A stretch of 64,000 nt of DNA from Escherichia coli (GTDB taxonomy: Bacteria > Pseudomonadota > Gammaproteobacteria > Enterobacterales > Enterobacteriaceae): assembly GCF_050920415.1 (NCBI RefSeq), contig NZ_CP169309.1, one strand, 5' to 3'. The notes beneath the pieces are model-generated. The model ran no database searches, had not been told where the DNA came from, and was given only the letters and a program-made list of their open reading frames with translations. The translations under genes were made by a program, and so were the position numbers. Shown piece by piece: positions 27,053 through 28,750 of this stretch. Each line of letters opens with the position of its first letter. Positions within the stretch are counted from its first letter, which is position 1.

Positions 27053-28750
27053 TTACGCAGAAGTACGCATCGCACTGATAGTATTAAATTCATTTTTTAC
27101 ATTGAGCAAACGAGGGTCGTGAAGCAAAACATTTGACCATAAATCATTCTCTTTAATTAATTGTTGCCAGCGCTTTTCATATTCTTTCTTACCATAAACA
27201 GTGTAAATTAACGGCAAGATCACACCATTGATTTTGTTAGTGTTAATATTTGCCAGTAACTTCATAATGTCATTTTTTATAGATGCGCCATAGATCAGAA
27301 ACTTCGTATAAAGCGAGTTAACACAGCTGTAATCAAGATCATGCTCAGGATCAAGTTTAAGCAATAAACTTTTGGCTTTGTCATTATGTCCTTTCAGTGC
27401 CATGAACATAGCCAGAGTAGACGTAATAATTGGATTGTTATAGGAGTTTTGACTATTCAGATTTAACGCAAAAGATATCGCGTTATCGAGTGATGATGTG
27501 TAATAAAGTATAATTAGTTTAAGAACACTTATACCCATTTTATTGGGCTCAAGAGTAATGCTTTTTTCTATTAAATTAAACGCTCTTGCAAGGTCGCCGT
27601 TCAAAAAATATAGCAGCGACTGATAATAATAAACGTCTGGTGAATTAGGTTTGAGTAAATGTGCTTGTTTAAATAGCACATTAGACACTGAATGTTCATC
27701 TTTTAGCCCACTGATTAAACCTAGCAATCCTAATGCCTGAGAATTTGAAGGGTTAATTTCCAGAGCCTTTTCTATGGCTGTTACTGCTGTTTTTATAGCT
27801 TGTTTTTGTTCACTGAGCCCAAGGAGTGCCAATGATATATGGCATTCCGCCAGACAGCAGTAGGGCAAGGTATTTTGTGGTTGCGTACTCACACAATCTC
27901 TAAATATTACTAACGCTCGTTTCAAACTCTCTGGTGTATAACGGTACATTTCCATTCTGCCATTCATATACATAACAGCAGAATCAAGAGATGGCATTTG
28001 TTGTGTATTAATAGATTTAAAATTAATGTTAGGGATTTTTTCAATGAGGATATTAATTACTTGTGATAATAATACGGAAAGAGGATTGTCTGGGTTAAAA
28101 TCAATACTTTGATGATCAATCAACTTATGCGTTCTGGCATGAATTAATTCAATAAATAAACGCCAGTTTTTACCATAGTGAACGACCTGGCCCATAATGT
28201 AATATTCTGGGCCTGTTTTATTGATAAACTGGTGGATAGTAGAAAAATCGCTTGCCTCATTCGTTACCGAGGCAGGTAAGATATCTAAACCACAAAAAGC
28301 ATATTTTGAAAGGCCCTGCACAAGTTCGTAATGCAGTTTTAGAACATTGATTGAACCTTCGGTACGAAATGGAAAAACAGCAAGAGTGGTAGTCGACTTT
28401 ACCGGTTCATTATCGGTTACAATCACAATGGGTACAGTAAAACGGTATCCACGACCATAGACCGTTTCGATATACTTACACTGTTTATTCTCATGCAAAA
28501 GTTTGCGCAATGCATAAATACACCGTGTTAAAGATTCATCACTGGCAACACTTGCGCTCCAGACCTTATCAATAATCTCTTCTTTGCTAACAATTTCACC
28601 GTCAGCATTAAGTAATAGAATGATAACCCCAAGTTCTTTGGGGGGAATATGGTATTCTTTATTCTTGAATAATAATATTCCATTGTTTTTTAATACAAAC
28701 TCACCGAATATATATTGTTGTGTATTATTTTTTCCATGTAGCAGTTGCAT
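27053..28750 (-). CDS. eilA: HilA-like transcriptional regulator (N-terminal OmpR/ToxR-type winged-helix DNA-binding domain plus C-terminal TPR-like region)
   Basis: 565-aa ORF; strong similarity to Salmonella HilA motifs (IPPKE..V...LL.A.GEIVSK....D.VW......ESLTRCIYALR; PYC.LAEC; NPQALGLLGLI). Confidence 0.8.
   Translation of the reverse strand: MQLLHGKNNTQQYIFGEFVLKNNGILLFKNKEYHIPPKELGVIILLLNADGEIVSKEEIIDKVWSASVASDESLTRCIYALRKLLHENKQCKYIETVYGRGYRFTVPIVIVTDNEPVKSTTTLAVFPFRTEGSINVLKLHYELVQGLSKYAFCGLDILPASVTNEASDFSTIHQFINKTGPEYYIMGQVVHYGKNWRLFIELIHARTHKLIDHQSIDFNPDNPLSVLLSQVINILIEKIPNINFKSINTQQMPSLDSAVMYMNGRMEMYRYTPESLKRALVIFRDCVSTQPQNTLPYCCLAECHISLALLGLSEQKQAIKTAVTAIEKALEINPSNSQALGLLGLISGLKDEHSVSNVLFKQAHLLKPNSPDVYYYQSLLYFLNGDLARAFNLIEKSITLEPNKMGISVLKLIILYYTSSLDNAISFALNLNSQNSYNNPIITSTLAMFMALKGHNDKAKSLLLKLDPEHDLDYSCVNSLYTKFLIYGASIKNDIMKLLANINTNKINGVILPLIYTVYGKKEYEKRWQQLIKENDLWSNVLLHDPRLLNVKNEFNTISAMRTSA

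Follow-up and report, generated by a model that had tools for sequence, protein, structure and literature searches.

The HilA-like regulator EilA has been described in enteroaggregative Escherichia coli strain 042 (Sheikh et al. 2006, Mol Microbiol 61:338). As summarised in PMC4210603 and PMC7058095, it controls eicA, eipB, eipC, eipD, and eaeX/air, and mutants of eilA and eaeX show less adherence and form less biofilm. Its targets also include two unlinked genes of ETT2, eivF and eivA (PMC7058095). In a Salmonella hilA mutant, EilA restores SipA secretion, invF transcription, and sipA expression (PMC4210603), an effect that requires it to act on the promoter of invF, which depends on HilA. 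The translocators rely on a secretion apparatus encoded elsewhere (PMC7058095). Together with air, eilA is used as a standard virulence marker in E. coli genome typing.

The DNA analysed here (the window) is a stretch of 64 kb from an E. coli genome. Judged by its sequence, the gene at 27053-28750 is eilA, an already characterised HilA-like virulence regulator. We report the identity, domain architecture, synteny, and purifying selection of this gene and the box-like sequences of its presumed target promoters; its regulon and its capacity to replace HilA are taken from the literature on a 96%-identical orthologue and would apply here by analogy. The locus is already known, and the regulatory role was published in 2006 for the strain 042 orthologue, so that the regulatory link proposed in the initial annotation has little value as a discovery. 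Since that annotation had itself named eicA and eilA, it is the recognition of a known locus. Of modest value are the confirmation that the eip island of the window is intact and carries a rare allele of eilA, and the concrete candidate EilA sites in the adhesin and eicA promoters. The genes of the island and the elements between them are as follows.

17325-27001, plus strand: giant inverse-autotransporter adhesin of the IatC type in the eaeX/air position, split by a 1-nt deletion at 25994
27015-27042, no strand assigned: perfect 12-bp inverted repeat with a 4-nt loop between the convergent adhesin and eilA stop codons (terminator scan, both strands)
27053-28750, minus strand: eilA coding sequence, HilA/EilA-family transcriptional regulator (intact ORF, ATG start, 565 aa)
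28751-28898, minus strand: upstream region of eilA, presumably its own promoter (three sense-strand TTCAT motifs)
28899-28921, minus strand: terminator-like hairpin upstream of eilA, 32 nt past the eipD stop codon (terminator scan)
28953-34035, minus strand: translocon operon eicA-eipBCD (NCBIfam matches; same gene order in other genomes)
28953-30302, minus strand: eipD, SipD/IpaD family (TIGR02553, 138 bits, below the cut-off of 219)
30346-31497, minus strand: eipC, no family match in the profile search
31510-33291, minus strand: eipB, SPI-1-type translocon model (NF011901, PRK15374; 115 bits, below the cut-off of 828)
33346-33528, minus strand: 60-aa ORF, no family match (ORF and profile search)
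33538-34035, minus strand: eicA, SycD/LcrH (SicA/LcrH) chaperone (TIGR02552, 113 bits, above the cut-off of 105)

In each locus examined (L001, L003, and L004), the island has nepI and yicS on either side; it adjoins selC. Its order is eicA, eipB, eipC, eipD, and eilA, followed by the convergent adhesin gene. The translocon gene matching NF011901 is annotated in RefSeq as a YopB/SseC translocon subunit. As the initial annotation had it, eilA is downstream of a SipD-like gene: 202 bp separate it from eipD, the SipD/IpaD-family gene on the same minus strand. The G+C content of the island is 34-41%, compared with about 50% for the backbone on either side. Over 40.8 kb the window shares 99.97% identity with E. 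coli strain MFDS1022581 (NZ_CP169399.1), in which IS2 interrupts eicA; this IS2 is absent from the window.

The giant adhesin was also said to lie tail-to-tail with eilA. The arrangement is indeed convergent, with the adhesin reading frame ending at 27001, but the adhesin is not one ORF in the window. It is found as two ORFs, 17325-26042 (2905 aa) and 25976-27001 (341 aa), due to a frameshift from the deletion at 25994 relative to NZ_CP169399.1, where iatC is intact at 3225 aa. This frameshift matters when the adherence of the window strain is interpreted. The regulon has eroded differently in the sister genomes, by the adhesin deletion in the window and by the eicA IS2 and ETT2 lesions in MFDS1022581.

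The product of eilA matches the NCBIfam model NF009037 (HilA/EilA family virulence transcriptional regulator) with 934.3 bits, where the curated cut-off is 589. The alignment runs from end to end, residues 1-552 of EilA corresponding to positions 2-553 of the 553 in the model. With the YgeH model NF008870 it scores 227.9 bits, below the cut-off of 800, and the protein does not belong to YgeH by this model. In BLASTP against Salmonella HilA, 197 of 542 aligned positions are identical (36%), with 60% positives, no gaps, and E 4e-128. The alignment spans residues 11-552 of EilA, through the central and TPR-like C-terminal regions, and bears out the likeness to HilA along the whole length that had been noticed from the sequence of the 565-aa protein. 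The HilA sequence compared (P0117) represents a cluster of 2553 members, which NCBI names "transcriptional regulator HilA [Salmonella enterica]".

Among E. coli sequences, the window EilA is 96% identical in protein sequence to the main EilA cluster. A megablast search of 5426 complete E. coli genomes finds the region 26900-29000 in 730. All matches listed carry the annotation "HilA family transcriptional regulator EilA", and the neighbours of eilA in them are an IpaD/SipD-family gene and, with few exceptions, an inverse-autotransporter adhesin gene, named IatC or EaeX/Air. With a protein identity above the 90% asked of members and a location between nepI and yicS beside eicA-eipBCD and the adhesin gene, the window gene falls into the EilA orthologue group. 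It also has the T3SS linkage of the HilA/EilA family, its neighbours matching SipD/IpaD, SPI-1-type translocon, and SicA/LcrH chaperone models.

EilA consists of three parts, of which the limits are approximate.

28418-28723, minus strand: winged-helix DNA-binding domain of the OmpR/PhoB type, residues ~10-111 (Pfam, AlphaFold2, superposition on CadC)
28040-28393, minus strand: central alpha/beta domain, residues ~120-237 (AlphaFold2 model)
27062-27991, minus strand: C-terminal all-helical TPR-like domain, residues ~254-563 (Pfam, PDB sequence matches, Foldseek, AlphaFold2)

The Pfam domain Trans_reg_C (PF00486) is found at residues 31-104 with E 8e-16. In the AlphaFold2 model, which was built on 21 family members and has a mean pLDDT of 81.5, residues 10-111 are predicted to form a sheet of four strands along with three helices and a wing hairpin. 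The best match among solved structures is the DNA-binding domain of E. coli CadC (5ju7), on which the winged helix superposes with an rmsd of 1.9 Å and a TM score of 0.83. The Pfam match, the predicted fold, and this superposition agree on the winged helix that the initial annotation had proposed. The third helix would be the recognition helix by analogy with OmpR/PhoB proteins. This helix and the wing are nearly identical between EilA (ESLTRCIYALRK, YIETVYGRGYRF) and HilA (ESLTRCIYALRR, YIETLYGQGYRF). The central and helical parts weakly resemble the periplasmic/sensor domain of CadC (3ly9). A C-terminal TPR-like region had been proposed as well, and several searches agree with it: Pfam gives weak TPR signals at residues 307-426 and a weak ANAPC3 match, a PDB sequence search finds consensus TPR proteins, Foldseek matches the C-terminal half to TPR superhelices, and the AlphaFold2 model is a helical repeat. 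No receiver domain (Response_reg) is found in EilA by Pfam. There is also no membrane span in EilA, the maximum 19-residue Kyte-Doolittle hydropathy being 1.42 against the usual threshold of 1.6, so the whole protein should be cytoplasmic.

Compared with two common alleles (L003 and L004), eilA has a dS of 0.26-0.30 and a dN/dS of 0.05. On these substitution rates the gene is under strong long-term purifying selection. In the central domain there is no nonsynonymous change against L003 and one against L004, compared with 33-34 synonymous differences. The divergence from these alleles is local: identity is 85% at the 3' end of the adhesin gene, about 90% in the intergenic spacers, and 94% in eilA, while eipD, eicA, and both target promoters are 97-98% identical to both alleles. 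For eipC and eipB, 97-98% holds against L003 only; against L004, eipB is 85% identical and eipC aligns over just 184 nt. The window carries a minority allele, with 10 of 732 genomes at least 95% identical over 26000-28950. From this pattern the divergent eilA block looks like an imported recombination block.

The hairpin at 27015-27042 had been taken as a terminator common to eilA and the adhesin gene. The perfect 12-bp hairpin is there and is stable on both strands (fold z-scores against shuffles of -5.5 on the minus and -6.5 on the plus strand). Its 28 nt are invariant in the divergent alleles L003 and L004, while the flanks differ at five positions. The T-tracts after the stem are short or weak on both strands, and for this reason the terminator role is inferred; the hairpin is probably a bidirectional terminator. 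The stem of the second hairpin, at 28899-28921, is kept in L003 and L004 via a U.G to C-G change. The 500 bp upstream of eilA are reported to drive a reporter (PMC7058095), and a hairpin between eipD and eilA fits this activity. A HilA-box search of the upstream region 28751-28898 gave no match above chance in local shuffles, and the sequence thus lends no support to autoregulation. A search of the two presumed target promoters gave two candidate elements.

17237-17260, plus strand: direct repeat of the adhesin promoter that resembles a HilA box, ATTCAT-cattt-ACTCAT-CATGAAT (pattern match 15/19)
34227-34239, minus strand: HilA-box-like element of the eicA promoter, proximal half only, GTTCATCAGGATT (half-site match 12/13)

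The HilA box is said by Lostroh and Lee to consist of two hexamers 5 bp apart, at about -54 to -37. Following them, we take the repeats in two Salmonella promoters to be classical HilA boxes: TTTCAT-tctat-TTTCAT-CAGGAAT in the prgH promoter (read from contig L002) and TTTCAT-aatgt-TTGCAT-CAGGATT in the invF promoter (read from contig L007). The pattern TTTCAT-N5-TTKCAT-CAGGAWT was built from these two promoters alone and searched on both strands of the 64-kb window (128,000 positions). Note that the CAGGAWT tail was joined to the pattern after the window sequence had been seen. The single best match to the full pattern in the window, with 15 of 19 specified bases, lies on the sense strand of the adhesin promoter at 17237-17260. 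As good a match occurs in 82 of 10000 local dinucleotide shuffles (P ~0.008). The repeat belongs to three TCATCAT copies with spacings of 11 and 10 bp, and its middle hexamer differs in another allele. For the proximal half, TTKCATCAGGAWT, the single best match in the window (12 of 13) is 34227-34239 in the eicA promoter, again in the sense orientation; 40 of 10000 local shuffles are as good (P ~0.004), and the half-site is identical in L003 and L004. The eicA promoter has one hexamer and the CAGGATT tail, with no matching upstream hexamer of a two-hexamer box. The search for HilA-box-like repeats that the initial annotation called for thus gives a match in both promoters, that of eicA being a half-box only.

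Simpler patterns are less informative. TCAT-N7-TCAT matches three times in the window against 2.5 expected, and TTTCAT-N5-TTTCAT with up to two mismatches matches 11 times against 9.3 expected, none of these in the target promoters; neither pattern is enriched. The heptamer TTCATCA is over-represented in the window (25 against 10.9 expected), but mostly within genes, so that the raw count says little about promoters. On the sense strand of three island promoters it occurs 4 times against 0.27 expected, a real excess but one of a motif picked after looking. Run on the sister strain's ETT2 island, the box pattern gives five equal top matches in AT-rich DNA, none of them upstream of the prgH homologue; its specificity is therefore limited and it is not a reliable genome-wide predictor. 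No consensus sigma-70 promoter is found on the sense strand of the adhesin or eicA promoter regions, as expected for activator-dependent promoters.

[quoted passage not shown] EilA would be a soluble protein with neither a receiver domain nor a membrane segment, and its N-terminal winged helix would bind direct repeats of the HilA-box type. It would then activate weak, AT-rich, horizontally acquired promoters, namely those of the adhesin gene and eicA-eipBCD and, elsewhere, those of eivF and eivA in ETT2. eilA itself would be transcribed from its own promoter, behind the hairpin after eipD, and its transcript would end at the hairpin common to the convergent adhesin gene. Control of both the translocon operon and the adhesin gene, as the initial annotation suggested from the layout, is what is reported for the 042 orthologue (summarised in PMC4210603 and PMC7058095). 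The further suggestion of a self-contained module fails: since EilA also controls the unlinked eivF and eivA, and the secretion apparatus is encoded elsewhere (PMC7058095), the eip module is not self-contained.

Which promoters are bound by EilA itself is a matter of weighing several explanations. In Salmonella, the sicA promoter, which is homologous to that of eicA, is driven by InvF-SicA and not by HilA. The control of the translocon genes may be similarly indirect, with EilA activating EivF, the InvF-like AraC protein of ETT2, which together with the chaperone EicA would act on the eicA promoter; the adhesin gene and possibly eivF would then be the only direct targets. Such a scheme copies the Salmonella cascade from HilA through InvF-SicA to sicA-sip, and we give it an appreciable chance, although one short of even. 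It agrees with the regulation of eivF by EilA in strain 042 (PMC7058095), with the action of EilA through invF in Salmonella (PMC4210603), and with the missing upstream hexamer in the eicA promoter. The InvF site overlaps the -35 of the sicA promoter (PMC7595419), and a T-rich stretch at 34147-34163 (CTTGTTTTTAATG) agrees by eye with the Salmonella sicA promoter (CGTTTTTTGAATG) at 10 of 13 bases. However, the match of this stretch to the MxiE box GTATCGTTTTTTTAnAG (PMC9769918) is weak, 9 of 16 specified bases in AT-rich DNA, and as a putative InvF/MxiE box it is a weak lead. The eicA promoter, moreover, holds the best half-box of the window, oriented in the sense direction, and the ETT2 island is degraded in the near-identical strain. 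Direct binding of EilA is likely at the candidate site 17237-17260 in the adhesin promoter. At the candidate half-site 34227-34239 it may occur, as the sequence match suggests, with the cascade as a real alternative. That EilA binds directly to both the two-hexamer box of the adhesin gene and a one-hexamer variant at eicA, its conservation reflecting a control of adhesion that is independent of secretion, is a tentative and somewhat doubtful proposal. If it is true, the dN/dS of 0.05 despite a decaying ETT2 would mean that EilA has a job in adhesion via the inverse-autotransporter adhesin.

The box-like sequences also bear on how EilA would activate its targets. Its main action might be to lift the silencing of the AT-rich island by H-NS, and not to recruit RNA polymerase from a defined box. 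The G+C content of the island would suit this, as would the repression by H-NS of the paralogue ygeH, whose promoter it binds (PMC4210603), and the finding that T3SS activators of the MxiE type are dispensable once H-NS is depleted (PMC9769918). Yet the box-like sequences are in the sense orientation, and their distance from the start codons is plausible; we consider this explanation unlikely. It could also be that eilA is intact but has little present function in a decaying regulon, persisting by recent descent or linkage and not by current selection. The frameshifted adhesin gene of the window and the eicA cut by IS2 in the 99.97%-identical strain are in keeping with such decay; in the ETT2 of the same sister strain an sctQ-type gene is frameshifted, eivJ is split, and an IS2 is present, and the erosion of ETT2 and eip by mutation has been well documented (PMC7058095). 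Against this, the low dN/dS extends over a deep divergence (dS ~0.3) and indicates long-term purifying selection, and the ORF, the upstream region, and the terminator hairpin are all intact. Each of the two sister genomes has its own inactivating lesions, which hence are very recent. That eilA has little function at present seems quite improbable.

Compared with known systems, the window gene is the same gene as eilA of enteroaggregative E. coli 042 (UniProt D3H2F7 according to PMC4210603). Both proteins have 565 aa, and the island of 042 has the same content and order and likewise adjoins selC. The winged helix of E. coli EilA is identical to that of the window protein save two residues. While the 042-type locus has the EaeX/Air adhesin, that of the window is of the IatC type and frameshifted.

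HilA of Salmonella enterica SPI-1 has the same three domains as EilA in colinear order, and the two align at 36% identity without gaps. Each is linked to translocon genes of the SPI-1 type, and the 042 orthologue of the window EilA substitutes for HilA (PMC4210603). The surroundings differ. The hilA-iagB genes of SPI-1 converge with sptP...sipA-sipD-sipC-sipB-sicA, with five genes between hilA and sipD, whereas in the window eilA directly follows eipD on the same strand and no HilD/HilC-type regulator genes are found near it. Unlike that of HilA, the regulon of EilA includes an adhesin gene. YgeH, the HilA-like regulator of ETT2, belongs to the same superfamily and also complements a hilA mutant (PMC4210603), but it is shorter (458 aa) and encoded in a different island. 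One-component regulators of the ToxR/CadC type have an N-terminal winged helix like that of EilA, from which they differ in having a transmembrane segment.

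The eilA gene, which encodes the HilA-like regulator of the eip island, lies in a block of local divergence. From about 26000 to 28950 in the window, the sequence departs from the alleles that are common among E. coli genomes: identity to them is 85% at the 3' end of the adhesin gene, 94% in eilA, and 89-90% in the spacers flanking eilA. eipD, eicA, and both target promoters (those of the adhesin gene and eicA) are 97-98% identical to the common alleles. The allele group of the block is found in only 10 of the 732 genomes. This pattern of identity suggests that the block was acquired by recombination with a distant donor. 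Compared with the common-allele locus L004, eipB (85%) and eipC (which aligns only partially) are also highly divergent, indicating that the island is mosaic outside this block as well.

The final ~60 nt of both nepI and yicS (17060-17122 and 34337-34400) match at 95-99% in island carriers; in about 4600 island-less genomes the identity is only 87-89%. The island boundaries seem to lie within the ends of nepI and yicS, or these ends seem to have been transferred together with the island. The interval separating yicN from nepI, immediately upstream of the island, holds a toxin gene and an antitoxin gene:

15044-15704, minus strand, RelE/ParE toxin gene and HTH antitoxin gene (identified through the sister strain's annotation)

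The sister strain, E. coli MFDS1022581 (NZ_CP169399.1), is 99.97% identical. Its eilA differs from that of the window solely at 27808, where residue 315 of EilA is Q in the window, as in the common allele, and K in the sister strain. Its eicA carries an IS2 insertion (26893-28224 of its eip-island locus, L001, corresponding to window 33787-33792), while eicA in the window is intact (165 aa). Therefore, the inactivating lesions in this island differ between the two near-identical genomes. In the adhesin gene (17325-27001, plus strand), one T is missing at 25994 compared with the sister strain. The deletion (GGCAA-T-GGGCAAT) is outside any homopolymer run. It leaves the 3225-aa iatC gene as two ORFs, one of 2905 aa and one of 341 aa, and could represent a true pseudogene or an assembly error. 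Staggered self-matches reveal internal tandem repeats at 20770-24830 (period ~291 nt, 60-64% G+C), presumably the Ig-like (Big) domains that recur in the passenger.

A hairpin directly 3' of nepI limits the adhesin promoter to approximately 17196-17324:

17176-17195, plus strand, terminator-like hairpin

Between eicA and eipB there is a small ORF, for which the three genomes compared all carry the annotation "hypothetical protein":

33346-33528, minus strand, 60-aa ORF

It has no NCBIfam match, and the Salmonella sicA-sipB interval is without a counterpart of it.

ETT2, the unlinked type III secretion island whose HilA-like regulator is YgeH, also has an IS2 in the sister strain, together with a split eivJ and a frameshifted sctQ-type gene. 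In this ETT2 locus (L008), a LuxR-type regulator gene is preceded, at a distance of 83-106 nt, by a perfect direct repeat, TTTCAT-tatta-TTTCAT (16137-16160), which is a candidate YgeH/EilA box.
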